Shown in pieces: positions 889-53,220 of a stretch of DNA of 64,000 nucleotides. This DNA comes from Candidatus Omnitrophota bacterium (GTDB lineage: Bacteria; Omnitrophota; Gorgyraeia; Gygaellales; Profunditerraquicolaceae), in the NCBI GenBank assembly GCA_041650835.1, contig JBAZKL010000001.1, positions 440,185 through 504,184 of the forward strand. The letters run 5' to 3'. The position numbers were made by a program, and so were the translations under genes. The first letter of the stretch is position 1; the number at the start of each line of letters is the position of its first letter. The notes below the pieces were generated by a model. It made no database searches. It worked only from the letters and a program-made list of their open reading frames with translations, and was not told the DNA's origin.

Positions 889-957
889 ACCAATAAAATA
901 TACCACCAAAGCGCGATCTTGTCAAATCCGCGGGAATTCCCTGCTCCGACAACCGCT

Positions 958-1917
958 CTATGCCTTGAATTCGGAAAGCTGCTTAATACGCTTAAGCATA
1001 TTCGGATGGGTACTCAAAAGCTCCATGAGCTTATCGCCAAAACCTAAAGTGACCTGTTTATTGCGTAACTGCTCCAATTCATGGGTATCAATGGTCCCGC
1101 TTTTATCCAGATCAAGCTGTTTTAATTCTTTTATTTCAGTTAATGCCCGGGATGGATCATTGACAAAGAAAGCCTTCAACCCTTCAACCTCCTTCAAAGA
1201 TTCCTTGTCGATACGGGCAGACCCATAGACGAGCTTATATAAGCTCGAGGCAAGCGCGGCGGGTTTATTCCCCAAAAGCATCGAGCCGCGGTCGGCGAAA
1301 TATTCCCTGATACGCGAGGCATATAATACCAGTAAATTAGTAATAAAATAAAAGAGCATCGCCACGATCCCGATCAAAACGGTATTGCCTCCCCGCTCAT
1401 TCCTGCGGCGGCCGTAAAAAAGGAAATTCCAGGCAATGCGATACATGATCATCGGGATGACCGAAAGGAGCGTAATGGTCAAAACGTCCCTGTTCTTTAA
1501 ATGGCTCAATTCATGGCCGAGCACCGCCTTTAATTCATCGTCATTGAGCAGCTGCATAATGCCTTCGGTAACGCAGACCCTGCCGTCTTTTATCGACCTG
1601 CCGAACGCGAACGCGTTCGGGATGCTTATTTGAGCGATGCCCACCTTCGGCATCGGGATCCGGGCCTGGTTACTTAAGCTTTCTACCATCTGAAATAAAC
1701 GGGGATTATCCTGGCGTTTAATATAGCGTATGTGCATCGTCCATTCGATGATCTTAGGCCCGACCAAATACTGAATAAACATCACCCCCAGGGATATCAC
1801 CAGGTAAAAGTAAAAATTAGACACCCCCATATACGAACCAACCATCACGATGACCGCGTAAATAATCGCGAAGAGCGCGACGATCAATAAATTCATTCTT
1901 AACTGAAGCAACCACAT
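958..1917 (-). CDS. htpX: Zinc metalloprotease HtpX (M48 family)
   Basis: HELSHLKNRD contains the HExxH motif. There are multiple TM helices and M48/HtpX-like architecture. Confidence 0.85.
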   Translation of the reverse strand: MWLLQLRMNLLIVALFAIIYAVIVMVGSYMGVSNFYFYLVISLGVMFIQYLVGPKIIEWTMHIRYIKRQDNPRLFQMVESLSNQARIPMPKVGIAQISIPNAFAFGRSIKDGRVCVTEGIMQLLNDDELKAVLGHELSHLKNRDVLTITLLSVIPMIMYRIAWNFLFYGRRRNERGGNTVLIGIVAMLFYFITNLLVLYASRIREYFADRGSMLLGNKPAALASSLYKLVYGSARIDKESLKEVEGLKAFFVNDPSRALTEIKELKQLDLDKSGTIDTHELEQLRNKQVTLGFGDKLMELLSTHPNMLKRIKQLSEFKA

Positions 1918-11856: not shown

Positions 11857-13806
11857 TCACATAATACGGCGCAGCTTTTCCTCAATCACCCTTTTATTCT
11901 CCAGCCTTAAGACTGCCGGATCACCTTGAAACAACCGCTCGATAAGCCCGGAAAGCTCAACGGGATGACAAAGATGAATATATCCGTCTTGGGACATTTG
12001 TTTCAGGAATGCTCCGTGGCGGCGGCGTAACCCCGCCGCCTGGAAAACAATGACATGCTTACCGCTGCCGGCTGCTTCGGAGATCATAGAAATACTTTCA
12101 GGAGAAACAACGACCAAACGGCTCAACCCCAATATCCCGCCCACTGCTTCAGGGATATTACGTTCATTAGCGATCACTTGCAAGAGGCAGCGCGGTTCAT
12201 CGCGCAATTCGCTCTTGATAAGCGCTTCCACTGTTTTTGACGTCCGCCGGGATGTGGATACCAGGATAGAAAAACCTTTCCCGGCGGCAAGAGCTTTAAC
12301 CTGAGCGAATACCTCAGCCACGGCCTTCGGCTCTAAACAAAAATTTTTTGTGTCTCCGCCGATTAAAATCCCGATAGCAGGGCCCGGCGGGGTGGAAGAA
12401 GACGGCATCAGCCGCTTTAATGCTTGAGCCTGGCTTTCAATATATTCCCGGTCGATCAAATTAAGCGCCCCTGCTGTTACGGCGATATTCTTACCCCGCG
12501 GGGGATTATCATGGCGGGGCATCACGACCAGATCAAAACCTCCTAAATCCAGTATTGACGGCCGCATAACTACCAGAGATTTGGCGAGTGATTCCCGGGA
12601 AAGGACCCGGTTCACGGCCGCCCCTGAAGAACCGCATGAAATAATAATATCCGGGGTTTGGCTCTTGAGCTGCCGGTAACAGGAAGCCTCTAAAGAAACC
12701 TTCAGGCAGGATAAGCATCCCTGACAGACCCACCCCGCCGAAAAACAGCTGGCCAGCGTTAACGCCTGGCGTAAAAATACGCTTTTATATTTTAACCGCA
12801 CGCACCCGGTATTGACACGAATGCCTTTATCCGCCAGATACCCGCAGGTGATCTTGGCAAGTGATTCCGACTGGCGAAGATGTCCCGTTTTGCCGTCATC
12901 CAGGATCAGGAGAAAACGCTCCCGCGAATATTTCCAGATCTTATATATCCAAAGGTATTCCTGGGGATAACGGGTAATATATTTTTCGAAAACATGCGTC
13001 AGCGCCTGCACATTATCCCGGATATCGGCATCAAGGTCGCCGGTTTCCTTAAGCGCGAAAGCAGGCTCTATAAAGACCGTAATCACCGGCCCCGCTACGC
13101 GCGTAAAGAAAACGGGGACTATTGCTACACCGTATTTTAACGCCAGGCGGACCGCCCCGCTCGACATTGAAGCGCCTTTACCGAAGAAGCTCACTTCCAC
13201 GCCGGCCTTGCCTCCCTGGTCCAGCGTCATACCGACCGCCTGATTACGCTTCAGGATTTCTATCAGCTGCCGGATCTCATTCTTTCTCTGAAGAATTGAG
13301 CAGCCTTTTTGGCTGCGATATGAATTCAACAAACGGTTCAGGCGCGGCATTTTCTGGTCGTTGACAAACATATGGAACGGCACTCCTAAATTGGCGCTGA
13401 GTATATTGGAAAGCTCCCAACTGCCTTCATGAATGCCAAGGAAGATGAGCCCCTTGCCTTTTTGCAGGCTTTCCTGAATATGCCCCAACCCTTCAAAACG
13501 GATATACCGGTTAATGTACTTTCTATCGACCTGGGGAATAAAGAATATCTCAATGAGGTTCTGCCCAAAGCTGCGGTAGAAATCATGAGCAAGCCTGAAC
13601 AATTCTCCGGGGGAACGCTGAGCGCCGAAAGCCGACTTAAGATTCGCGTAAACGCGCTGGCGGTGCTTACCGTCACAATAAAAGACACACGTTCCCAACA
13701 GCCTCCCTAAAGCAAGGCTCACCCTTTTGGGCAGGCTTCGTAAAAGCGGGCCGCAGGATCTAAAAACTATACAGCCGAAGTAATCGATTAAGGAATCTTT
13801 GTTCAT
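11857..13806 (-). CDS. Lipid A biosynthesis LpxL/HtrB-like acyltransferase fused to a C-terminal ELM1/PF06258-like (predicted nucleoside-diphosphate-sugar-binding) domain
   Basis: The N-terminal half has the LPLAT HX4D-like motif (LGIHEGSWELSN) and LpxL-like length. The C-terminal half (DIIISCGSSGAAVNRVL...FDLVVMPRHDNPPRGKNIAVTAGALNLI) resembles bacterial ELM1-family proteins. The start is set at MNKDSL (13806); the longer ORF overlaps lpxK. Confidence 0.6.
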   Translation of the reverse strand: MNKDSLIDYFGCIVFRSCGPLLRSLPKRVSLALGRLLGTCVFYCDGKHRQRVYANLKSAFGAQRSPGELFRLAHDFYRSFGQNLIEIFFIPQVDRKYINRYIRFEGLGHIQESLQKGKGLIFLGIHEGSWELSNILSANLGVPFHMFVNDQKMPRLNRLLNSYRSQKGCSILQRKNEIRQLIEILKRNQAVGMTLDQGGKAGVEVSFFGKGASMSSGAVRLALKYGVAIVPVFFTRVAGPVITVFIEPAFALKETGDLDADIRDNVQALTHVFEKYITRYPQEYLWIYKIWKYSRERFLLILDDGKTGHLRQSESLAKITCGYLADKGIRVNTGCVRLKYKSVFLRQALTLASCFSAGWVCQGCLSCLKVSLEASCYRQLKSQTPDIIISCGSSGAAVNRVLSRESLAKSLVVMRPSILDLGGFDLVVMPRHDNPPRGKNIAVTAGALNLIDREYIESQAQALKRLMPSSSTPPGPAIGILIGGDTKNFCLEPKAVAEVFAQVKALAAGKGFSILVSTSRRTSKTVEALIKSELRDEPRCLLQVIANERNIPEAVGGILGLSRLVVVSPESISMISEAAGSGKHVIVFQAAGLRRRHGAFLKQMSQDGYIHLCHPVELSGLIERLFQGDPAVLRLENKRVIEEKLRRIM

Positions 13807-14845
13807 CTTTGACGATTTTAAGTTCAATGCGCAAAGCATAGAGCGCGCACAATGGATTTCTTTCGTATAAAGACAAAAAACGCGCCGCGTCCTTTTCCGT
13901 CGTAATAATAGCTTCGATATTCTTTTCTTTCGCGCGCGCGCACAGCAACTGCCAATCCCGGAGAGAATAACAATGATGGTCCTGATACCTGACCGATAAA
14001 GCGCTCTGTATCCCCAAAGTGCCGGTAAGCTTCTCAAAAGCATCAGGATTCCCGATGCCCGAGACCAAAACAGCCGTTTTTCCCTTGAAAAAAGACGGCG
14101 CTAACAGTTCAGCAGGGTTATCGATACGGTAAAAACCTGCCGCTTGGGGTAGCGCTTCCACGATCAACGCCCGGGGGTTAAGCTGCGCCAATGAATCGCG
14201 TAAAGCAGACGTCTCTGCGGTTATATGCGTGTTATTCAGGACAAAAATGTCCGCGCGTTTCAATGATACGAGAGGCTCACGCAGGATCCCCCGCGGGATC
14301 ATCTTTCGGTTCCCAAAGCAAACGGCAGCATCGATCACCACGATCTCTAAATCCTTGGCGATACGCCATTGCTGAAAGCCATCGTCGAAAATAACCGTAT
14401 CGGCTTTATGCTCGTTTATTGCCCGCAGGCTGCCGGCTACCCTGTCAGCCCCGACTATAACGGGAACGCCTTGAAGGTTCTGCGCGAGCATCTTTGCCTC
14501 ATCCCCCATGGACGCGTAACCGGGGAGGGAATTCTTTTTAAGCCTTTTATAACCCCTGGTTATTATCGCTACGGCAGAACCCCGCCCTTTTAAATACCGG
14601 GCGATATATTCCACGAGCGGTGTTTTTCCTGTCCCTCCGAGAGTAATATTCCCGACGCTGACCACTTTACAGGGCAAGCGGTACGGCCTGAGGGAGCACC
14701 ACCGGCTCAACACCCGTACAATCGCCCCGTAAAGAATGGATAAACCAAACAAGACAGCTTTGAAGATGCCGGCAGGAGCCCCTTGTTTTTTATCCGTTGC
14801 CAGCTCTAAAAGATATTCTTTTATCATACGCTTAAACACGCTCAA
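13760..14845 (-). CDS. lpxK: Tetraacyldisaccharide 4'-kinase LpxK
   Basis: The Walker A motif sits in the LpxK context (VSVGNITLGGTGKTPLVEYIARYL). The size is ~360 aa. Confidence 0.85.
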   Translation of the reverse strand: MSVFKRMIKEYLLELATDKKQGAPAGIFKAVLFGLSILYGAIVRVLSRWCSLRPYRLPCKVVSVGNITLGGTGKTPLVEYIARYLKGRGSAVAIITRGYKRLKKNSLPGYASMGDEAKMLAQNLQGVPVIVGADRVAGSLRAINEHKADTVIFDDGFQQWRIAKDLEIVVIDAAVCFGNRKMIPRGILREPLVSLKRADIFVLNNTHITAETSALRDSLAQLNPRALIVEALPQAAGFYRIDNPAELLAPSFFKGKTAVLVSGIGNPDAFEKLTGTLGIQSALSVRYQDHHCYSLRDWQLLCARAKEKNIEAIITTEKDAARFLSLYERNPLCALYALRIELKIVKDEQRFLNRLLRLYSF

Positions 14846-19984: not shown

Positions 19985-20165
19985 ATGTCAATAGTTATCA
20001 TGCTCGGCTGCGCAGCACCCCAGCTTAATAGGAATGCTGGGTGCGCCCGTTCCGGGCAGCAAGCGCGCACCGGCGCAATTCCGCGGCAGAAAGCCGCGCA
20101 CCCGCCTCTCCAATAAGGCGGGGTGCCGATTAGCGCCGGGTGTAATCAGTTATCGTTGGGCAAAG
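19985..20165. repeat. GC-rich structured interspersed repeat, family B, copy 1 (GCACCCAGC...GCTGGGTGC / GCGCAATTCCGCGGCAGAAAGCCGCG / CAATAAGGCGGGGTG modules)
   Basis: It contains several perfect short stem-loops. The same ~150 nt element recurs at 23815-24044 (same orientation) and 40655-40828 (reverse complement). Confidence 0.8.
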
Positions 20166-20864: not shown

Positions 20865-20904
20865 ATTTTAAGAAACAATAACTGAATTATCATTAACAGA
20901 TACT

Positions 20905-21075
20905 TATATAATGTTAATGATAAAGTCTAAAGTCTAAATAACAAAGGAAGATTAAAGGTTAAAGGTTAAAGGTTAAAGGTTAAAGGTTAAAGGTTAAAGG
21001 TTAAAATTTAATCTTTATTCTTTGAATTTCCTTTGTTATTTAAGCTTTAAACTTTAGACTTAACTTATTATATCT
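20905..21075. repeat. Hairpin interspersed repeat, family A copy, with an expanded (GGTTAAA)7 heptamer tract in the loop
   Basis: Arms gtctaaagtctaaataacaaaggaa ... ttcctttgttatttaagctttaaactttagact flank a 7x AGGTTAA tandem tract at 20953-21005. Confidence 0.85.
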
Positions 21076-22989: not shown

Positions 22990-23418
22990 AACACCCCGTC
23001 TTGTTAAGATTATTGAAAAACAATACGTTAATTTTAAAGGATAAAGGTTAAATATCAAAGGAAGGTTCAAGGTTTAAGACTAAAGAATTAATCTTAAACT
23101 TTCCTGCCTGCCGGCAGGAACCTTTATTCTTTGAATTTCCTTTGTTATTTGAGCTTTGAATGAACCATGCCTCAGGCGCTTATGGTTCATTCATCCCGAG
23201 CTCTGTCGAGGGGTTAAACTTTGGACTTTTCCGTCACCCTGATATCCAGAATTTATGTAGTTGGGTTAGGGTTAAGATTTTAGTTTGGTTGTTAGGAATG
23301 GTTGTTAGGTTACTAAAAACCCAACTACTCAACCAAACTACCAAACTAACCGCTTAACCATGACCTAACTACTATTTAGGTCAAACCAAGGAATATACTC
23401 TATCACTTTTTCCTGAAA
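22990..23418. repeat. Composite repeat island: a family A hairpin copy (with CCTGCCTGCCGGCAGGAACC core), plus a GAACCATGCCTCAGGCGCTTATGGTTC...CCCGAGCTCTGTCGAGGGG module, plus GGTTGTTAGG / CCTAACTAC modules
   Basis: It lies between doxX and malQ. The second module recurs at 58491-58560 and, reverse-complemented, in CCCCTCGACAAGCTCGGGG at ~39785 and ~40115. Confidence 0.8.
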
Positions 23419-23814: not shown

Positions 23815-24044
23815 GCTTAACCTCCTGCCGCACAAAGCGGCACACCGGCGCAATCCCGATCTGCGCCGGGTGTAACTTGCATACACATACCAACGCAATT
23901 CCGCGGCAGAAAGCCGCGTACCGGCGCAATTTTGCCGCAGTAAGCGGCATACCCCGCCATTCCAATAAGGCGGGGTGCAATCTGCGCCGGGTGCTCGGCA
24001 TACCCAGCAATCTCATATGCTGGGGTGCTCTTAAGCGTTGGGCG
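23815..24044. repeat. GC-rich structured interspersed repeat, family B, copy 2 (longer, with internal partial duplication)
   Basis: It contains gcaattccgcggcagaaagccgcg, ccattccaataaggcggggtg and ctgcgccgggtg twice. It generates overlapping spurious ORFs on both strands. Confidence 0.8.
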
Positions 24045-37570: not shown

Positions 37571-37876
37571 CTAAAGCGACTGTAATTTCGTCAGGATCTC
37601 AGTGACACCGACATACTGCGCGCCTTCTTCACGCACGACTAATTTGTAGAACTCGCAGACCATGCAATTGCCCACTTTCGCGGCGAATGCCCCCTGGACC
37701 TTGCCGCCGCAAAGCGTTCCCGATACCGCCCAACAGGCACGGCCGGCATTCTTGCCGCTATTGATCTTATCCACCCGTATCTCAAGAGCTACGGGGCACG
37801 CCCCTAATTCAGAGACTTTAATGCCTCCCGGCTCCCGGCCGCATTTCTTGAACTCCCAGCAGTTTTGTTTTGCCAT
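37571..37876 (-). CDS. Small cysteine-rich protein with two Cys-Trp motifs (two-CW-like domain)
   Basis: 101 aa reading MAKQNCWEFKKCGRE...GRACWAVSGTLCGG...CMVCEF, i.e. seven Cys and two CW motifs. It resembles N-terminal two-CW sensor domains (inference). Confidence 0.45.
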   Translation of the reverse strand: MAKQNCWEFKKCGREPGGIKVSELGACPVALEIRVDKINSGKNAGRACWAVSGTLCGGKVQGAFAAKVGNCMVCEFYKLVVREEGAQYVGVTEILTKLQSL

Positions 37877-39101: not shown

Positions 39102-39665
39102 CTATTGCCAAAGGCCGCGCTTATTTTCGCGCGCGTCCTGGTATAATTTCAGGAATAGATCAGCATATTTCACGTTTGGAGGATATGTCATTAAAGAAGC
39201 ATACCCCTGTTTTACGATCTCGGCATTTATAAAGGTACCATCCGGTAAATAAGCATACCCCAAGAGCCTTCCGTATTTATCCTTTTTTTCCACGTCAAAT
39301 TCCAATTTGACGCGCTTTCCTTCCACCAGGCCCCGGGTAAATTGATACGAGCGCTTCCCCAATTTCTTAATGGTTTCAACGTTCTGGCTCATCCGCTGGC
39401 TATCCCGGTATAACTTTTTAGACTCATGCATCTCAGGAGTATCGATGCCGATAAGCCTAACCCGTTGCCCGCCTTCTAGTACCAGAGTATCGCCATCAAC
39501 CACTCTATCTACAAGTATATCATAATACTTATCTTCAGCGCCAATTGGCGCGTTCGCCTTATTACTGCTTTGATTACCTATCCAACCTGCCTGCTCACAA
39601 GCAGCAAGGCAAAGCGAAAGAAAGATCGCGGATAAAAGTAACCCTTTCTTAAACATCTTTTTCAT
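39102..39665 (-). CDS. Secreted thermonuclease (SNase/micrococcal nuclease-like) lipoprotein
   Basis: Signal peptide with lipobox (LAAC). VVDGDTLVLEGGQRVRLIGIDTPE, YGRLLGYAY and LMTYPP are SNase-fold signatures. Confidence 0.8.
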   Translation of the reverse strand: MKKMFKKGLLLSAIFLSLCLAACEQAGWIGNQSSNKANAPIGAEDKYYDILVDRVVDGDTLVLEGGQRVRLIGIDTPEMHESKKLYRDSQRMSQNVETIKKLGKRSYQFTRGLVEGKRVKLEFDVEKKDKYGRLLGYAYLPDGTFINAEIVKQGYASLMTYPPNVKYADLFLKLYQDARENKRGLWQ

Positions 39666-40170
39666 TCTTAACTCCTTTATTACACTATATTTACTTAGAA
39701 ATAATTATTGGTGATCCGCTTATCCGGGTACCCCAGTCGCCAGAGCCCCAGTCACAAGTCGCAAGACACAGGTCACATGACACCCCTCGACAAGCTCGGG
39801 GCAAGCAAGTAGTCGATAGTCTATAGTCAATGGTCGATAGTCCATAGTTATAGGTTATGGTTAAGGTTAAGATGTTAGTTTAGTTGTTAGGTTAAGGAGT
39901 TGGGTTATTTAACGTTAATGATAAAGTTTAAAGCTCAAATAACAAAGGAAATCCAAAGAATAAAGTATAAAGTTTAAAATTTCCTGCCTGCCGACAAACA
40001 GAAAACTTTAAACTTTAACCTTCCTTTGTTATTTAGCCTTTACCATTTAGACTTAACTTGTCATATACCTAACTACCAATAATAAAGTCACAAGACACAG
40101 GTCGCAAGACACCCCTCGACAAGCTCGGGGCAAGCAAGTAGTCGATAGTCCACAGTCCATAGACGGGAGA
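39666..40170. repeat. Composite repeat island upstream of the helicase locus: CCCCAGTCGCCAGAGCCCCAGTCACAAGTC module, TAGTCCATAG modules, GTTAGGTTAAGG module, a family A hairpin copy (39901-40060), then a ~95 bp segment (40061-40166) that reappears as a direct repeat at 42881-42975
   Basis: Direct sequence comparison of 39901-40166 with 42717-42975. Confidence 0.8.
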
Positions 40171-40436
40171 AACTTTACGGTTTTTGCTTTAAGCGCACAT
40201 TTGAAAACTTTTGCCAAAAGTCTGCGAGGAATTACGAATCGCCGTAGCACTCGCGACCACGAAAGTCAACTGGCGAAGGCGATGAGTAAACCGAAGCAGA
40301 CGGCAAAATGTTTTTTGTGCGCGTAAGCAAAAAGCGTAAAATTTCCCGGCTACTACCGACTAGTTGCAACATGCGACTGTTCAAGTTTCTCAATATTCAC
40401 TTGCACGCTCACTTGGCACTATTCTATTCTTTTTTA

Positions 40437-40466
40437 TTAGATAAATCAATGGTTTTGGACTATAAT
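40437..40466 (+). promoter_or_regulatory. Candidate sigma70-like promoter (TTAGAT-18-TATAAT) upstream of a small ORF and the helicase
   Basis: The sequence is ttagataaatcaatggttttggactataat, followed by GGAG and an ATG at 40497. Confidence 0.3.
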
Positions 40467-40654
40467 AGTGATGCCACAACTTATGGAGCGAATGAAATGA
40501 GCGAACATAAGTTGTTTGACCGAACTATCCTGCCGAGTACGTCAAAATTATGGAACAGAATTTTGACGTATCTTACGAGGCAGGATGCATATTCGGTTAT
40601 CGGAGGCTCGGTTATCGCTAACCGAGAACCAAGACCCGAGAACCAATAAGCAAA

Positions 40655-40828
40655 AACTGACAACACCCGGCGCAGATCGCACCCCGCCTTATTGGAATGG
40701 CGGGGTATGCCGCTTACTGCGGCAAAATTGCGCCGGTGCGCGCTTCCTGCCCAGCAAGGACGCACCCAGCATTCCTATTAAGCTGGGGTGCTGCGCAGCC
40801 GAACACCAAGAACCGAGCACCGATAACC
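40655..40828. repeat. GC-rich structured interspersed repeat, family B, copy 3 (reverse-complement orientation), abutting the helicase start
   Basis: The reverse complement aligns with 19990-20150. Confidence 0.8.
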
Positions 40829-42703
40829 GTGATATACGACCGCTTTCAAGAAGAAGCCATAAACTACATTAACCAGGGATACTCGGTAATTGTATCAGCT
40901 CCTACCGGCGCCGGAAAAACTGCGATCGCCGAGCATATTATTGAGAATGCCTTACGGCTTAAGCAGGGAGTCATCTATACCGCTCCCATCAAAGCCCTTT
41001 CCAATCAGAAATTCCGTGATTTCCAGCATCAATACCGGGAAGATATCGGCATTTTAACCGGCGACGTATCGTTGAACGCCCATGCCCCGGTACTGATCAT
41101 GACCACAGAAATATTCCGCAACAAGATCCTCGATGAACCCGAGAGCCTGAAAAAATATTCGTGGGCGATCTTTGACGAGATCCATTATATTGACAACTAT
41201 GAACGCGGGACTGTCTGGGAAGAATCCCTGATATTCCTGCCGAAACACATCAATCTGCTGGGTCTTTCGGCGACCATACCGAATATCAAGGAATTCGCCC
41301 AATGGATCGAATCGATCCATGAAAAACCGATCAAGATCGTCATTGAAGACAAGCGCCCGGTGCCCTTGCATTTTTTCTTCCAGTGCCAGAACCAGGTGGT
41401 CGATAAGATCGAAGCGCTCAGGAGAATCCGCTTCAGCAAATTCAACAAGCTCGTCTCCCTGGTCAATTATATCCAAAGAAATAACGGGCTTCCCTGCATC
41501 TATTTTGTCTTCGGCAGGAGAAAAGCGGAAGACCTCGCTTATGAATTATACAGCTATAATTTTCTCACCCCCGAGGAACAGGCGAAGATCACTTTACTCT
41601 TTGATTCTCTCTGCGAACGCTTTGATTTAAAGAACGAAAAAAGCGCTGTTGCCATGTACCCGCTGGTCAAACACGGCATTGCCTTCCATCACGCGGGCAT
41701 GCTTCCGACATTAAAAGAAGTGATCGAACGGCTTTTTACCAGCAAATTGCTGAAAGTGATCTTTACCACGGAGACCTTTGCCCTGGGCATTAACATGCCC
41801 AGCCGCAGCGTCGTATTCGATGAACTGCGTAAATTCTACGGCCGCTACGTGCGCAACCTCAAAACCCGGGATTTTTACCAGATGGCCGGCCGCGCGGGAA
41901 GGCGCGGCATGGATAAAGAAGGTTTCGTCTATGTCCGGGTGAATTTGAACAGGATCAAGCATGAAGAAGTAAGGAATATCCTTTACGGCAAACCCGAAGA
42001 GGTCAAAAGCCAGCTTAACAATTCCTACGCGACGATCCTTAACCTCTACCAGCGCTATAAAGACGAACTGTACCGGATATACTCCTTCTCATTCCATTAT
42101 TTCCAGACCAAAAAATACCAGCAAAAAGAAGCCCTCAGGTTAATGCAGGCAAAGCTGTCGCTGTTGAAGGATTCAGGATATATTGCCGACGAAGCCTTGA
42201 CCGCCAAGGGGCAATTTGCCAAGAATGTTTACGGCTACGAGCTGCTTTTATCCGAACTCTTCGCGCGCAACTGTTTTGAAGAGCTCGACGAATTCGGGCT
42301 GGGGATACTGGCGGCGGCAATCGTTTTTGAACCGAGGAAAAACCAGCAGGCCCATCAACTTCCAAAGGCAGCGCGGGGGATACAGGAACTCTGTGAAGAC
42401 GCCTTTGAAAAAATATACCACAAAGAATCGAAGTATAAGATTTACCCCATCAGCAAAGCGCCGTTTTTCCACCTGGCAAAACCAATGGAATGCTGGCTGC
42501 AGGGTATGCAATTCAGCAAGATACTACAATACAGCGATACTGATGAAGGTGAAGTCGTGCGCTATTTCAGGATGAGCATCCAAATACTGCGGGAAATCAA
42601 CAAAACCCCCATCTCCCCTGCCTTAAAAGAAAAGATCAAAGAAACGATCCGTGTTATCAACCGGGGCATCATCGACGCGGAAAAACAGCTCAGAGAAAGC
42701 TAA
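40829..42703 (+). CDS. Ski2-like superfamily II DEAD/DEAH-box helicase (HelY/Mtr4-like core)
   Basis: Q-motif (FQEEAI), motif I (SAPTGAGKTAIAE), Ski2-type motifs (YTAPIKALSNQKFRDF, ILTGD, FDEIHYI, LSATIPN) and RecA2 motifs (HHAGMLP, MAGRAGRRG). The six-frame ORF begins at 40697 inside a repeat and no in-frame ATG precedes the Q-motif. A GTG at 40829 is proposed as the start (uncertain). Confidence 0.7.
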   Translation: MIYDRFQEEAINYINQGYSVIVSAPTGAGKTAIAEHIIENALRLKQGVIYTAPIKALSNQKFRDFQHQYREDIGILTGDVSLNAHAPVLIMTTEIFRNKILDEPESLKKYSWAIFDEIHYIDNYERGTVWEESLIFLPKHINLLGLSATIPNIKEFAQWIESIHEKPIKIVIEDKRPVPLHFFFQCQNQVVDKIEALRRIRFSKFNKLVSLVNYIQRNNGLPCIYFVFGRRKAEDLAYELYSYNFLTPEEQAKITLLFDSLCERFDLKNEKSAVAMYPLVKHGIAFHHAGMLPTLKEVIERLFTSKLLKVIFTTETFALGINMPSRSVVFDELRKFYGRYVRNLKTRDFYQMAGRAGRRGMDKEGFVYVRVNLNRIKHEEVRNILYGKPEEVKSQLNNSYATILNLYQRYKDELYRIYSFSFHYFQTKKYQQKEALRLMQAKLSLLKDSGYIADEALTAKGQFAKNVYGYELLLSELFARNCFEELDEFGLGILAAAIVFEPRKNQQAHQLPKAARGIQELCEDAFEKIYHKESKYKIYPISKAPFFHLAKPMECWLQGMQFSKILQYSDTDEGEVVRYFRMSIQILREINKTPISPALKEKIKETIRVINRGIIDAEKQLRES

Positions 42704-43333
42704 AAGTCCAGCCATAGGTTAAAGTTTGGGTTATTCAACGTTAATGATAAAGGTTAAAGTCTAAAGAACAAAGGAAATTCAAAGAATAAAGGTTAAATTT
42801 TAAAATTACCTGCCTGCAGGAACCTTAAACCTTTAAACTTTAATCTTCCTTTGTTATTTATCCTTTAGACTTTAGACTTAACTTGTCATATACCTAACTA
42901 CCAATAATAAAGTCACAAGACACAGGTCGCATGACACAAGTAGTCGATAGTCCACAGTCCATAGTTATAGGTTAAAGAGTGGGGTTATTTAACGTTAATT
43001 TAAAAGTCTAAAGTTTAAAAAACAAAGGAAATCCAAAGAATAAAGTATAAATTTTAAAATTACCTGCCTGCAGGAACCTTTAAACTTTAACCTTTAATCT
43101 TCCTTTGTTATTTATCCTTTAGACTTTAGACTTATCTTACTATTTATTATTTTAAACCAAACTCCTTTACCCAACTACTAAACAAACTTCTTTACCCTTA
43201 CCTAACTACCAATATTAAAGTAGCATGACACAAAACACAGGTAATCGATAACGATAAATTTAGGTTTGCGACTTGAAACATGTGACTTGAGACTGGGACG
43301 ATGGGACTCTGGAGACTGGGGCACCCGTGACTT
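42704..43333. repeat. 630 bp non-coding repeat island with two family A hairpin copies (42717-42890, 42967-43140), a direct repeat of 40061-40166, and a reverse-complement copy of the CCCCAGTCGCCAG...GTCACAAGTC module (43240-43330)
   Basis: Direct comparison. It lies between the helicase stop and the Macro-NUDIX stop. Confidence 0.85.
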
Positions 43334-44275
43334 TTATCTTTTGATTTTTTTTGATCTTATATAATCGAGGATGATCTTCTTGTGGTCGAAGGCAAAGGAT
43401 AACGCGTTGATCTTACGCAGCGGAACGACTTTGACTGCCGCGGCGTCATCACCCGCGCGGGGAACACCCGAGGCTCTGGCTGTGAAAACCGTGCCTATGG
43501 TGTGAAAGCGGGGGTCACGGCCGGGATCGGAATAAGTATGGAACTGTTTTACATCGAACAGGTCCAATCCGGTTTCTTCTTTAGCTTCACGCACGGCCGC
43601 TTTTTCTAAACTCTCTCCATAATCGACAAACCCCCCTGGCAATGCCCAGCCAAACGGAGGGTTGCTTCTTTTTATTATCACGATACCTTCTTTTAACTCG
43701 ATGATCGCGTCCACGGTAACAAAAGGGCTTTTGAGCTTATTGACAATATAATCCAGGTAGCCGAACATATTGCGCTCAAAAGCATCAAAGGTTTCTTTAT
43801 CCGGCAGGCAAAAAATTATTTCTTTTAAAGAAGGCTGCGGCTCTTGCCGTATATACCGATAGACTTCCTGGGCCATGATCTTTGCGCAGGCAAGCGGGCT
43901 TACCCCTTTTAAACCATCCCCTAAAGAAGGGAAAGCAATAGAGATCATTTTTAACTGCTGCGCCAGGCGCAAACAATTACCGGCAGCACTTCTTATTTTC
44001 ATTTCATCGCTCCGAAGCGCCCCATTCGCCGTCACCGCATGTATCACCGCCCGGGCTTTCAAACTCCCGCTATCCGTCAAACAAACCTCTCCCGCGGGAA
44101 ACGGGCTCATCTTGATCGCCTGATCTTCTATGATCCTGCCGCCTTTTCTTTTTATTGACGCCGCAATGCCGCGGTTCATCATAAGGCTCTTATCGGCAAC
44201 AGACACAAGCGCGTCCGCGGCACAAGCGGTAATATCACCCTGTATCACAGAAATATTAATATTATTGATCTTCAT
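43334..44275 (-). CDS. Macro domain (ADP-ribose-1''-phosphate/O-acetyl-ADP-ribose processing) fused to a C-terminal NUDIX hydrolase domain
   Basis: The N-terminal ~170 aa form a macro fold (VIQGDITACAADALV...NAANSSL-like...AFPSLGDGLKG). The C-terminus has a Nudix box (GGFVDYGESLEKAAVREAKEETGL). Confidence 0.75.
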   Translation of the reverse strand: MKINNINISVIQGDITACAADALVSVADKSLMMNRGIAASIKRKGGRIIEDQAIKMSPFPAGEVCLTDSGSLKARAVIHAVTANGALRSDEMKIRSAAGNCLRLAQQLKMISIAFPSLGDGLKGVSPLACAKIMAQEVYRYIRQEPQPSLKEIIFCLPDKETFDAFERNMFGYLDYIVNKLKSPFVTVDAIIELKEGIVIIKRSNPPFGWALPGGFVDYGESLEKAAVREAKEETGLDLFDVKQFHTYSDPGRDPRFHTIGTVFTARASGVPRAGDDAAAVKVVPLRKINALSFAFDHKKIILDYIRSKKIKR

Positions 44276-44450
44276 GGGGATTGTTTAAATAAAAATTCAA
44301 AGGCTAAAGATTAAATAACAAAGGAATTTAAAAGGTTTAAGGTTAAATTTTAAAATTTCCTACCTGCCGGTAAGCAGGAACCTTTAGCCTTAAACCTTCC
44401 TTTGTTATTTAGACTTTATCCTTTAACATTATCGTATTATAACAGACTTT
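44276..44450. repeat. Family A hairpin repeat copy
   Basis: aaataacaaaggaa ... cctacctgccggtaagcaggaacc ... ttcctttgttatttagactt. Confidence 0.8.
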
Positions 44451-44472
44451 GTGACACCGGTGAGCATCATTT

Positions 44473-45039
44473 TTATTGCTTCAAATACCCTTTTTCCTCT
44501 AATTTCTTGCGCAGTTGTTCAAAAGCGACCCCTACTTCCTTAAATTCGTCATATTTCCGGAAATGGAACGGCGGGGTGTTTTTCCCCTCACTGAGCAAAT
44601 TTAAATGCTTCTCAAGCCGGTACAAAGGCCCGGCGATGCGATGAGAATACAAAAGCGCTAAGATCCCTACGCACATCAAGACTACCGGCAAAACAGTCAA
44701 CAATATCACCTTCGTATTGATCCAATCCAGGAGGTCCTTGTAATGTTTCATCTCCAGGGTATGCTGCAGGATAAAAAGTTCCCGCTTCATCACTTCTATC
44801 TTATCGCTCAAGGTCACCCCCAAATCGGGATTCTCAAGTTTTTTCAGCGTCATATGGAGCGAAGCCGTTTCCTGCGCGAGTTTAAGCTTCTCATTATTCA
44901 TCAGGTTTTCGCCGCTTTTAAAGAGAAGAAAAATACTAAAAATACTCATGATCAACGCCGGGATGATCGTCATAGCGATATACTTGACCTGGCTTGACGG
45001 GTGGACAAAATAAGCGCCTCTCTTACCTTTTTTCTTCAT
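44473..45039 (-). CDS. Small membrane protein with two TM helices and a HAMP-like linker
   Basis: TM1, a ~100-aa periplasmic segment, TM2, then RIAGPLYRLEKHLNLLSEGK...EFKEVGVAFEQL (HAMP-like amphipathic helices). There is no output domain. Confidence 0.45.
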   Translation of the reverse strand: MKKKGKRGAYFVHPSSQVKYIAMTIIPALIMSIFSIFLLFKSGENLMNNEKLKLAQETASLHMTLKKLENPDLGVTLSDKIEVMKRELFILQHTLEMKHYKDLLDWINTKVILLTVLPVVLMCVGILALLYSHRIAGPLYRLEKHLNLLSEGKNTPPFHFRKYDEFKEVGVAFEQLRKKLEEKGYLKQ

Positions 45040-49695: not shown

Positions 49696-49898
49696 GGATA
49701 TGAAGTTTAGTGTTACAAAAAAATTTATAAATTACGGGTGCCCCAGCCTCCAGTCGCCAGCGTCCCAGTCACAAGTCTCATGCCTCATATCGCAAATCTA
49801 TAGCTATTTATTGCTATGGACCATGGACCGTAGACTATCGACTACGCGTGTCATGTGACTTGTGTCTTGTGACCTATTTCCCCGGACTTGTCGAAAGC
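49696..49898. repeat. Composite repeat: CCCCAGCCTCCAGTCGCCAGCGTCCCAGTCACAAGTC module plus CTATGGACCATGGACCGTAGACTATCGACTA module plus GTCATGTGACTTGTGTCTTGTGAC
   Basis: It shares modules with 39731-39800 and 43240-43330. It generates the spurious N-terminus (MSCDLCLVT) of the antisense ORF at 49848. Confidence 0.75.
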
Positions 49899-52302: not shown

Positions 52303-53220
52303 TTAAAGGGCCCCTTTCTTATCTTCAGCGCGGCCTTTACCCGCGGCTCCGGGAATCTCACCCCTGTTCTGCCTCATCTTTTCACGCCGCCCGGTCATTT
52401 TCTCTTTCAGCTCAGGATGATCATTCATATATTGCTGAAATTTTTCCGGTTCTTCCCGGCGTAACTGACGCAGCTTCTGCAGCTCTTCCTTCTTTTTCAT
52501 GACCTGCTGATATTTCTCAGGATCCTCGGTTTTCAGCTTTTCCAGGCGGTCCTGCATCTGTTTCTGCCGGGTCTCCATGAGCTTTTTATATTCTTCAGAG
52601 TTTTCTTTTTTCAACATTTCTATTCTTTCTTTGCCTTCCTCTAAACGCTGTTTCAATTGCGGGTGTTCATTTAAGTATTGCTTAAACTTTTCAGGATCTT
52701 TCTGCTGTAATTGGCGTAATTTCCTAACCTCTTCCTGCCTTTTCATGATCTGTTGATATTTCTCAGGATCCTCGGTTTTCAGCTTTTCCAGGCGATCCTG
52801 CATCTGTTTCTGCCGGTTATCCATCAATTCTTTGAATTTCTCCGGGTTTTCTTTCTTAAGCTGTTCTAACCGTTGTAAGCGCCTTTCCCGCATTTCCCGC
52901 ATGACTTTCCTATATCTTTCAGGTTCTTTTTGTTTTAAATCTTCCAGACGTTCTTTGATCTGCTTTTGACGCTCTGACACTACTTGCTTAAACTTCTCCG
53001 GATTTTCCTGTTTTAACTTTAACAACTCCTCTTTATTCATCCCTTTATGCTTACCTTTATCCCATCCTTTATGTAGCCCCTTATCAGCAGAACCCTCATT
53101 TGCTTTTACCGCCGCGGAATTCGCCTCATCTGCATAAGACAAAGCCGGCAACATACACAAAGCCATAATTACCACGCCGAGCGCAACACCGTTTAATTTA
53201 GTATTCATCGTATCCTCCAT
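52303..53220 (-). CDS. Secreted low-complexity K/E/Q-rich coiled-coil repeat protein (possible periplasmic stress protein, first gene of an ECF sigma operon)
   Basis: Signal peptide, then repeated units such as (QKQMQDRLEKLKTEDPEKYQQ[IV]MK..EE..KLRQL...PEKFKQY(L/M)N(E/D)HP(Q/E)LK). An underlying ~240 bp tandem DNA duplication is visible at ~52440-52560 versus ~52680-52800. Confidence 0.5.
   Translation of the reverse strand: MEDTMNTKLNGVALGVVIMALCMLPALSYADEANSAAVKANEGSADKGLHKGWDKGKHKGMNKEELLKLKQENPEKFKQVVSERQKQIKERLEDLKQKEPERYRKVMREMRERRLQRLEQLKKENPEKFKELMDNRQKQMQDRLEKLKTEDPEKYQQIMKRQEEVRKLRQLQQKDPEKFKQYLNEHPQLKQRLEEGKERIEMLKKENSEEYKKLMETRQKQMQDRLEKLKTEDPEKYQQVMKKKEELQKLRQLRREEPEKFQQYMNDHPELKEKMTGRREKMRQNRGEIPGAAGKGRAEDKKGAL

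Follow-up and report, generated by a model that had tools for sequence, protein, structure and literature searches.

A Ski2-like helicase gene of a Candidatus Omnitrophota bacterium is probably an ordinary core gene in repeat-rich spacers and not a mobile cassette

The question raised by this locus is whether a gene that lies between long direct repeats is mobile or merely has repetitive surroundings. We analysed a stretch of 64,000 nt from a Candidatus Omnitrophota bacterium (the window; coordinates without another name refer to it), in which a Ski2/Mtr4/HelY-like helicase gene (40829..42703, plus strand, 624 amino acids, GTG start) has related repeats on both sides. An earlier note on this DNA proposed that the helicase may be an acquired or mobile cassette. 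Our analysis implies, with a probability of roughly 85%, that the locus is the ancestral aroK-aroC-SNase / Ski2-like helicase / Macro-NUDIX-YjbQ arrangement of this bacterium and not a cassette. We would thus regard the helicase as an ordinary core gene that lies in repeat-rich spacers, with some real instability at the repeats; the earlier observation was correct, its interpretation mostly not.

The evidence that carries this reading comes from the relatives. In a scan of species-representative genomes the helicase was matched along the whole of residues 1-624, with identities of 47-88%, in at least 80 genomes (a lower bound), nearly all of them labelled Candidatus Omnitrophota, and the full-length matches include the complete genome of Velamenicoccus archaeovorus. 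When the neighbouring proteins were compared with 80 helicase loci by tblastn, more than 25 species proved to have aroK-aroC-SNase upstream of the helicase and Macro-NUDIX(-YjbQ) on its downstream side, and in all close relatives, too, the gene lies between SNase and Macro-NUDIX; the suspicion that the helicase is variably present between the thermonuclease and Macro-NUDIX genes is therefore contradicted. The gene order is also unchanged on the JGI contig of a relative with at least 90% amino-acid identity. The divergence of the helicase runs along with that of aroC from species to species (88 vs 87%, 75 vs 71%, about 70 vs 62-73% identity), its GC content of 0.476 is comparable to the 0.46-0.49 of the flanks, and the GC skew is uniform over the locus. 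The sister species L007 (88% identity) harbors the helicase at the same site without the hairpin repeat that we call family A, while an array of the X type, with its 7-nt period, is already present downstream of the gene. Since L007 has the gene and lacks these hairpins, the repeats arrived later than the gene. Taken together, the comparison argues that the helicase is a phylum-wide core gene, older than its repeats.

The repeats on both sides of the gene had been described as almost identical copies of about 260 bp. Searching the left cluster against the window with BLAST aligns 39888-40162 with 42715-42964 in the same orientation at 81.8% identity (275 columns, E 9e-78), so a same-orientation repeat does exist, but the wording was overstated, as the hairpin parts of the two copies are only 68% identical in an ungapped comparison (family D1). 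Their longest exact stretch is 34 nt (40066-40099 and 42891-42924, family D5). The internal indel of about 25 nt is real: it is the mini-element CCCCTCGACAAGCTCGGGGCAAGC, which occurs in the left copy at about 40111-40135 and is missing from the right one. The bracket of two copies likewise exists in a richer layout, X-A-X on the left of the helicase and A-X-A-X on the right or, in full, X(39756-39836)-linker-A(39902-40058)-X(40085-40165)-helicase-A(42728-42884)-X'(42910-42964)-A(42982-43138)-degenerate X. Each copy of the composite direct repeat corresponds to an A-X unit of about 254 nt, in which an AT-rich hairpin of about 160 nt (A) is embedded in degenerate arrays with a period of 7 nt (X).

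On the left side, X array and linker occupy 39720..39901, where Tandem Repeats Finder (TRF) reports period-7 arrays at 39750 and 39810 and where the degenerate heptads shift gradually from a GC-rich (CCCCAGT, CAAGTCG) to an AT-rich composition (TAGTCGA, TAGGTTA). The AT-rich left A hairpin with its inverted heptad arms follows at 39902..40058 (DNA fold of -22 kcal/mol, z -5.1), and then the A tail and the second X copy at 40059..40165, which hold the 34-nt stretch and the mini-element; the two left X copies match at 90% (family D4). Unit 1 on the right (42715..42975) consists of A and of a tail with X' at 42885-42975 and is the copy that the earlier note had paired with the left one. Unit 2 (42967..43232), with a degenerate tail and X after its A hairpin, is a tandem copy, 254 nt apart from unit 1 and 89.5% identical to it over 172 nt. 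A GC-rich heptad array in reversed orientation (CCCCAGT type on the minus strand, 43233..43333) then abuts the stop codon of the Macro-NUDIX gene and matches 39725-39773 and 49726-49800. The A-X unit would have been amplified locally, via tandem duplication or unequal exchange, and the left and right copies would therefore belong to one local subfamily. The helicase spacers measure 1,163 and 630 nt here, as against roughly 15-750 nt in relatives, where the spacer between helicase and Macro-NUDIX can be as short as 15-90 nt; both appear to have been inflated by lineage-specific non-coding DNA, namely X arrays, A hairpins and the elements B and C described below. The mini-element itself (about 25 nt) is seen nested in X arrays at 39782-39806, 40111-40135, 23185-23215 (reverse) and, in L007, at 11898-11925, and it behaves, by analogy, like the small dispersed repeats of cyanobacteria.

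Neither A nor X is confined to the helicase. Comparison of the window with itself revealed nine family A hairpins in 64 kb (at 20904, 23025, 39902, 42728, 42982, 44278, 51030, 53297 and 58379), all of them intergenic, with neighbour genes that are convergent, divergent or co-directional. Of the 18 spacers that measure at least 100 nt, about half contain family A, and A and X repeats lie at 8 spacers of the window besides those of the helicase. In the genome, about every second larger spacer is filled with related A and X copies, regardless of the neighbouring genes. Heptads make up the arms of A, TAAAGNN in one and the complementary sequence in the other, with an optional CCTGCCTGC..GG mini-palindrome between them, and the hairpins fold with z values of -5 to -7. 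Period-7 arrays are reported by TRF throughout the window, inside and beside the A, X and B elements. A lag of 7 is the best periodicity in 12 of the 18 spacers; base identity at this lag is 0.374 in spacers (0.336 at lag 14), whereas it is about 0.26 at the remaining lags and coding sequence reaches 0.246. When 61 Omnitrophota loci were compared, the lag-7 excess had a median of about zero and was highest in the window (0.113), so the heptad-based repeats are a lineage-specific expansion. At 20948-21005 a perfect (AAGGTTA)x8.3 microsatellite replaces the central loop of one A hairpin, and this array is likely a site of slipped-strand length variation. In close relatives, the spacer between helicase and Macro-NUDIX contains other hairpin families (L073 1505-1760; L007 11950-12260 and 12330-12500), one of which has terminal inverted repeats AATGAATCTGCCGG...CCGGCAGATTCATT, while another has the outer stem TTGGACTGATTTCGAGCGGGGC / GTCCCCGCGAGAAACAGTCCAAG that also borders element C in L081. 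The repeat content of the spacers would accordingly appear to turn over quickly between species.

The repeats are nevertheless a place where closely related sequences differ. L073 (92% nucleotide identity) carries a single A-X unit to the right of the helicase, compared to two in the window, and to the left one or two units are found. Two contigs of the ENA assembly ERZ27247363, on which the genes of the window were placed via exact-protein look-ups, match the window perfectly and part from it at the left cluster: k141_1717945 (354 kb) corresponds to the window from 64000 down to 39833, with 15.4 kb at 100.000% identity, and k141_1924541 (868 kb) to 6469-39981, with 22.6 kb at 100.000% identity. 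On the former the helicase is followed by X-A1-X'-A2 and then by Peptidase_MA_2, a PAS histidine kinase, T2SSF and T2SSE; on the latter SNase is preceded by X-linker-A, then T2SSG, pseudopilins, PilMN, SecE and NusG. The metagenome-assembled genome (MAG) at NCBI with WC695_ locus tags carries identical proteins in the order of the window (aroC MFA5117642, SNase MFA5117643, helicase MFA5117644, MFA5117646 and MFA5117647), and in it T2SSG (MFA5118407) adjoins Peptidase_MA_2 (MFA5118408). In the sister species the genes T2SSE-T2SSF-HK-Peptidase_MA_2-T2SSG-...-PilMN-SecE-NusG form a single co-directional block. GC skew stays uniform (-0.13 / -0.14) over the junction in the window, whereas it flips at both ENA junctions (+0.11 to -0.14 and -0.13 to +0.13). 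Because the NCBI MAG, the sister species and the GC skew agree with the window, its arrangement is taken as ancestral and that of ENA as the product of a reciprocal exchange, for which the 116-nt exact A segment shared by the two ENA spacers has the required orientation. We also considered whether the window could itself be a chimera of ENA-type contigs. Window and ENA contigs diverge within only about 12 identical bases, with the switch point at about 39882; with so short a shared stretch we reject an assembler chimera of ENA-type paths, and the cluster must have at least two haplotypes; both the NCBI/JGI assembly and the synteny across species back the window. In more than 50 kb of otherwise identical sequence the left repeat cluster is the only variable point.

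With these data the rival readings can be weighed. That the helicase is an acquired cassette, inserted or excisable by recombination between the flanking direct repeats, is suggested by the very arrangement of same-orientation repeats of about 260 nt around a single gene, mutually closest relatives with an exact 34-nt core, and by the fact that the helicase is the sole plus-strand gene from about 27 kb to 53.5 kb. We consider this reading very improbable. Gene and position are kept across species, and the repeats came after the gene, as L007 indicates; therefore the mobile cassette is rejected. The sequence between the flanking repeats holds only the helicase and non-coding DNA, and the repeats do not specifically mark its ends, since A and X lie at the 8 other spacers too. 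No integrase, transposase or attachment site accompanies the gene (no Pfam transposase domain in those gene calls that span about 6.5-64 kb of the window), no tRNA or tmRNA that could anchor an island was found in the window, and neither GC content nor the aroC-like identities disclose any discordance. A deletion variant that unites the two flanking repeats is absent from the five closest genomes and assemblies (ENA, NCBI, L073, the JGI 63-kb contig and L007). The earlier note had itself named two observations that would speak against a cassette, a conserved position of the helicase and repeats at most clusters whatever their gene content, and essentially both were made, the latter in about half of the larger spacers. 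Four points weigh against our preferred reading of a core gene in repeat-rich spacers, or at least complicate it. Neither a transposase nor a target-site duplication nor an empty site turned up that would reveal how A and X spread, so that the mechanism of their spread between spacers is inferred. The left and right A-X copies are 82-85% alike and share the exact 34-nt tail, compared to 67-80% likeness with the other seven A copies of the window, and by this measure the two helicase-flanking copies do have a special local relationship. The promoter and the GTG start of the helicase, both discussed below, are predictions that rest on comparison. Finally, ENA ERZ27247363 gives the helicase different neighbour genes and, should that arrangement be real, part of the population would carry a rearranged locus.

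This last point leads to what the conflict between the assemblies means. A-X units resemble one another and occasionally share exact stretches of more than 100 nt, which makes them substrates for recombination and for assembly errors alike; either process at the units would give differences in unit number and one partner swap without mobilising the helicase. We put about even odds on the partner swap being an assembly chimera at the shared A repeat, the real difference then being just one extra A-X unit on the left. Swapping the ENA contigs at the 116-nt match restores SNase-X-linker-A-X'-linker-A1-X-C-helicase, that is the window plus one unit, and also a short Peptidase_MA_2/A/T2SSG spacer; the restored junctions fit the GC skew, the integrity of the operon, the NCBI assembly and the synteny across species, and differences in unit number are independently found to the right of the helicase. 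What this explanation has to overcome is that, with a repeat of 116 nt and a final k of 141, the assembler would not be expected to produce two clean misjoins. The same property of the assembly graph favours a real large inversion, in which A repeats in the SNase/helicase and Peptidase_MA_2/T2SSG spacers recombine in an otherwise clonal population: as k exceeds the length of the repeat, spanning k-mers should support the joins, although this is an inference about the assembler. The inversion would further account for contigs that are 100% identical over their 15.4 and 22.6 kb and yet join Peptidase_MA_2 to the helicase and T2SSG to SNase, for the correct orientation of the 116-nt segment, and for the different sequence directly after the unique SNase-X prefix in window and ENA, which implies at least two haplotypes. 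We hold it to be a tentative explanation, one that is somewhat doubtful, as the ENA version flips the GC skew twice, reverses the gene-strand bias and splits the type II secretion (T2SS) operon, while the NCBI/JGI assembly and the sister species have the ancestral order at both junctions and a repeat-induced misjoin plus a difference of one unit accounts for the same data. Bolder still, and unlikely in our judgement, would be an inversion of at least 150 kb that is real and possibly recurrent in an otherwise clonal population, brought about by the A repeats of these two spacers, with the repeat clusters acting as a structural switch; if true, the type II secretion/pilus operon would be split and rejoined in alternation, and the upstream context of the helicase would change. 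The idea of the earlier note that the repeats are a recombination hotspot thus survives in part, in that unit number varies and one partner swap separates the assemblies, with the caveat that the swap may be a misjoin. One could also argue that the hairpins are retained for a local function, as bidirectional terminators where genes converge, as insulators between SNase and helicase, which are divergent, or as regulators of the helicase leader. All modules fold significantly better than shuffled controls (z -4.5 to -8.5), both right A copies sit between the convergent helicase and Macro-NUDIX genes, the A core is a short GC stem between A and T runs that was flagged as terminator-like, and the leader hairpin H1 is retained by compensatory changes in several species. 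However, A is found in spacers of every gene-orientation type and is absent at this locus in the sister species, terminator-like sites are not in excess of shuffles (5 vs 4.8), and element C lies in the same orientation as both flanking open reading frames (ORFs) in 21 cases and opposite to both in 21. Thus it is not likely that such a function explains the repeats.

Returning to the core gene itself, its assignment to the Ski2 type in the earlier note is well founded. Pfam recognises DEAD (1e-25), Helicase_C (8e-8) and DSHCT (1e-25), the Mtr4 and Ski2 structures are matched with E values of 1e-105 to 1e-97, and an SF2 DExH core followed by a C-terminal DSHCT domain is what places a protein in the Ski2-like family; no NCBIfam model reaches its cut-off for the helicase. 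The protein resembles Mtr4/Ski2 of eukaryotes and HelY of mycobacteria in having RecA1, RecA2 and C-terminal DSHCT domains, and differs from Mtr4/Ski2 in being only 624 amino acids long, without the arch/KOW insertion, which the matches skip by falling into two stretches. An identical protein of 624 amino acids is annotated by NCBI as MFA5117644.1. The remark that no in-frame ATG precedes the Q-motif does not hold literally, since there is an in-frame ATG at 40697 inside family B; its consequence stands, as all relatives start at the equivalent of GTG 40829. A start at ATG 40697 would give 668 amino acids, and no such product is recorded. We therefore predict GTG 40829 as the start of the helicase, on the strength of this comparison.

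The promoter-like site reported within the bracketed block was confirmed at 40438-40466 (TAGATA-17-TATAAT, 10 of 12 matches); it is the best in the region, and no further such site lies between 40466 and the GTG start. It belongs to a conserved helicase promoter on the plus strand (40420..40466, with the -35 element at 40438-40443 and the -10 element at 40461-40466); in most of about 45 species, only 6-9 nt separate the end of its motif ..TTTTTATTGGATAAATCAAT..TTTAGATTATAAT from the ATG of the helicase. Such a short distance suggests a leaderless or near-leaderless mRNA in those species. The spacer between the -35 and -10 elements is likewise conserved (120 nt upstream of ATG, L008-L062), which hints at a binding site for a regulator. 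Here the promoter lies 362 nt upstream of the GTG, the interval being filled by two hairpins, a heptad array, family B and a second heptad array. Judging by the relatives, hairpin repeats would have been inserted into a near-leaderless arrangement and displaced the promoter from the start codon; transcription of the helicase most likely still begins at the ancestral promoter at 40438-40466 and would run through a structured leader of 355 nt.

The two leader hairpins (H1 40476-40515, H2 40519-40597; together 40476..40597, plus strand, fold z -7.1) stand between promoter and start codon. The H1 stem ACAACTTATG...CATAAGTTGT recurs with compensatory substitutions in the helicase leaders of L007, L014, L021 and L023, and the leader at 40416-40587 is 92% identical to that of L007, compared to 83% for the coding sequence of the helicase. 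A consensus of the leader hairpin reads ACAAYTTAYG...CRTAARTTGT, with two copies in L007 (9735-9850 and 9940-9995); a small mobile hairpin and a regulatory RNA element are both conceivable. The 50-codon ORF noticed in the block is present at 40497-40649, but it is not conserved as coding sequence and its ATG sits in the H1 loop. As L021 has no ATG in this loop, the ORF is not a gene. Neither it nor ORF 40308-40649 has a Pfam or NCBIfam match, and we read the differences from L007 in these frames as mostly non-synonymous, with the hairpins preserved; both ORFs were rejected as genes. Downstream of the hairpins, family B (40655..40805, fold z -4.6) is a GC-rich multi-hairpin element of the REP/BIME-like type, bordered on both sides by CCGAGAA-type heptads (40605-40650 and 40799-40829 by TRF). 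It had been described as running right up to the helicase; family B itself stops at 40805, and it is the 14-nt-period array at 40799-40829 that reaches the GTG. Its other copies, both on the opposite strand, are at 20001-20151 (86%) and 23905-23993 (95.5%), which makes three in 64 kb.

Between the left A-X cluster and the promoter lies element C (40160..40349, plus strand), a rod-like structured element of 190 nt with one copy in the window and an RNA fold of -85.5 kcal/mol (z -8.5). A covariance model (R1) scores 189 bits on the plus strand and 57 bits on the minus strand, and the conserved core is ..TTTTGGCA..GTCTGCGAGGAWTTACG..GTAAACCGNAGCAGACGGCAAAA.. The element occurs at non-syntenic spacers of other Omnitrophota, three times in L081 (2514-2706, 4131-4319, 5287-5476), in L036 between topA and xerC (924-1127, minus strand) and in L053 between rdgB and rph (13945-14158), and a scan with the core motifs found it in more than 120 metagenome stretches (L087-L166) among the matches listed. 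In several metagenome contigs (L094, L089, L157, L101, L161) divergent copies are paired at distances of 60-850 nt. Covariation was assessed on 76 copies with at least 73 bits: 92.8% of the cells are paired, both sides have changed in 38 of the 53 pairs, and the covariation score of 0.464 exceeds those of shuffles (0.13) and of slid partners (about 0.05). As the alignment had been fitted to the model and three core motifs were fixed in the scan pattern, the apparent conservation is inflated, which does not apply to the covariation of the stems. G-T cells are just twice as common as A-C cells (64 vs 33), the orientation to flanking ORFs is random, as given above, and a AGCGGGTGG or CCACCCGCT motif lies within 80 nt on the 5' side in 20 of 72 copies and on the 3' side in none. 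No Rfam family matches element C; a 6S, SRP or retron RNA is not supported, given also that no reverse transcriptase is adjacent and that some genomes have multiple copies per locus. Element C is either a new MITE/ERIC-like family (MITE, miniature inverted-repeat transposable element) or a new structured RNA, and mobile palindromic DNA of the ERIC/MITE type appears a slightly better fit than an RNA gene.

How do these repeats compare to known systems? Tandem 7-nt units in intergenic DNA, as seen by TRF and in the lag-7 identity of spacers, are the mark of the short tandemly repeated repetitive (STRR) sequences. STRR heptamers with nested small dispersed repeats have reportedly been described in Nostoc/Anabaena, by Mazel et al. 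in 1990 and by Elhai et al. in 2008. The arrays of the window share with cyanobacterial STRR the intergenic 7-nt period including CCCCAGT-type units, the lineage-specific abundance, the non-coding nature and the small extra elements nested in the arrays, here the 25-nt CCCCTCGACAAGCTCGGGGCAAGC. They differ in the phylum, in being degenerate and graded from GC-rich near genes to AT-rich, and in being inverted so that hairpins of about 160 nt form; the comparison of homology with STRR covered the shared heptamer. Heptameric repeats are enriched in bacteria including Nostoc (PMC4692102). A and especially C also resemble MITE or ERIC/Correia/REPIN elements, REPINs being palindromic intergenic repeats (PMC3116915): both are small (130-190 nt), non-coding, hairpin-forming, dispersed in many copies and either orientation, and variably present between related genomes. 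Unlike these, they have no consistent target-site duplication on inspection of the flanks of A and C and no cognate transposase or RAYT gene seen in the window, and the A-X unit spreads also by local tandem duplication. Family B is similar to proteobacterial REP/BIME in its GC-rich imperfect palindromes of 30-40 nt with alternating orientation within an intergenic unit of about 150 nt, and dissimilar in the lack of a RAYT gene in the window, the heptad arrays at its borders and its three copies in 64 kb. Rfam gave no match at gathering thresholds over the whole window and, with E up to 1 over 39600-44500, just two chance-level miRNA matches; we found no description of Omnitrophota intergenic repeats in the literature.

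For annotation, these findings remove a false mobile-element call, set the helicase start at GTG 40829 and turn the 50-codon ORF into a hairpin. They also indicate that spacers in the Omnitrophota lineage of the window are unusually laden with repeats, in the form of heptad-period arrays with nested hairpins. It is precisely at these repeats that two public assemblies of one strain conflict, so joins in MAGs at such clusters need caution. Byproducts of the analysis are the assembly conflict or inversion, the heptad architecture, the conserved promoter and the widespread element C family, which shows strong covariation and has no Rfam entry.

Both direct neighbours of the helicase lie on the minus strand. 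The left one is the thermonuclease gene (39102..39665; Pfam SNase, E 5e-24), which adjoins the helicase in more than 25 species, and the right one is the Macro-NUDIX gene (43334..44275; Pfam Macro and NUDIX), whose position is conserved by synteny. Elsewhere in the window, ORF 52303-53220, which encodes a 305-amino-acid protein without a Pfam match, contains at 52402-52868 two direct copies of about 164 nt at a spacing of 246 nt and with 82% identity; this repeat is an internal coding duplication. Between aroC and aroK, a small conserved ORF on the minus strand (37571-37876) encodes a two-CW domain protein (NCBIfam NF045718, E 8e-33) that is 91% identical in the sister species.

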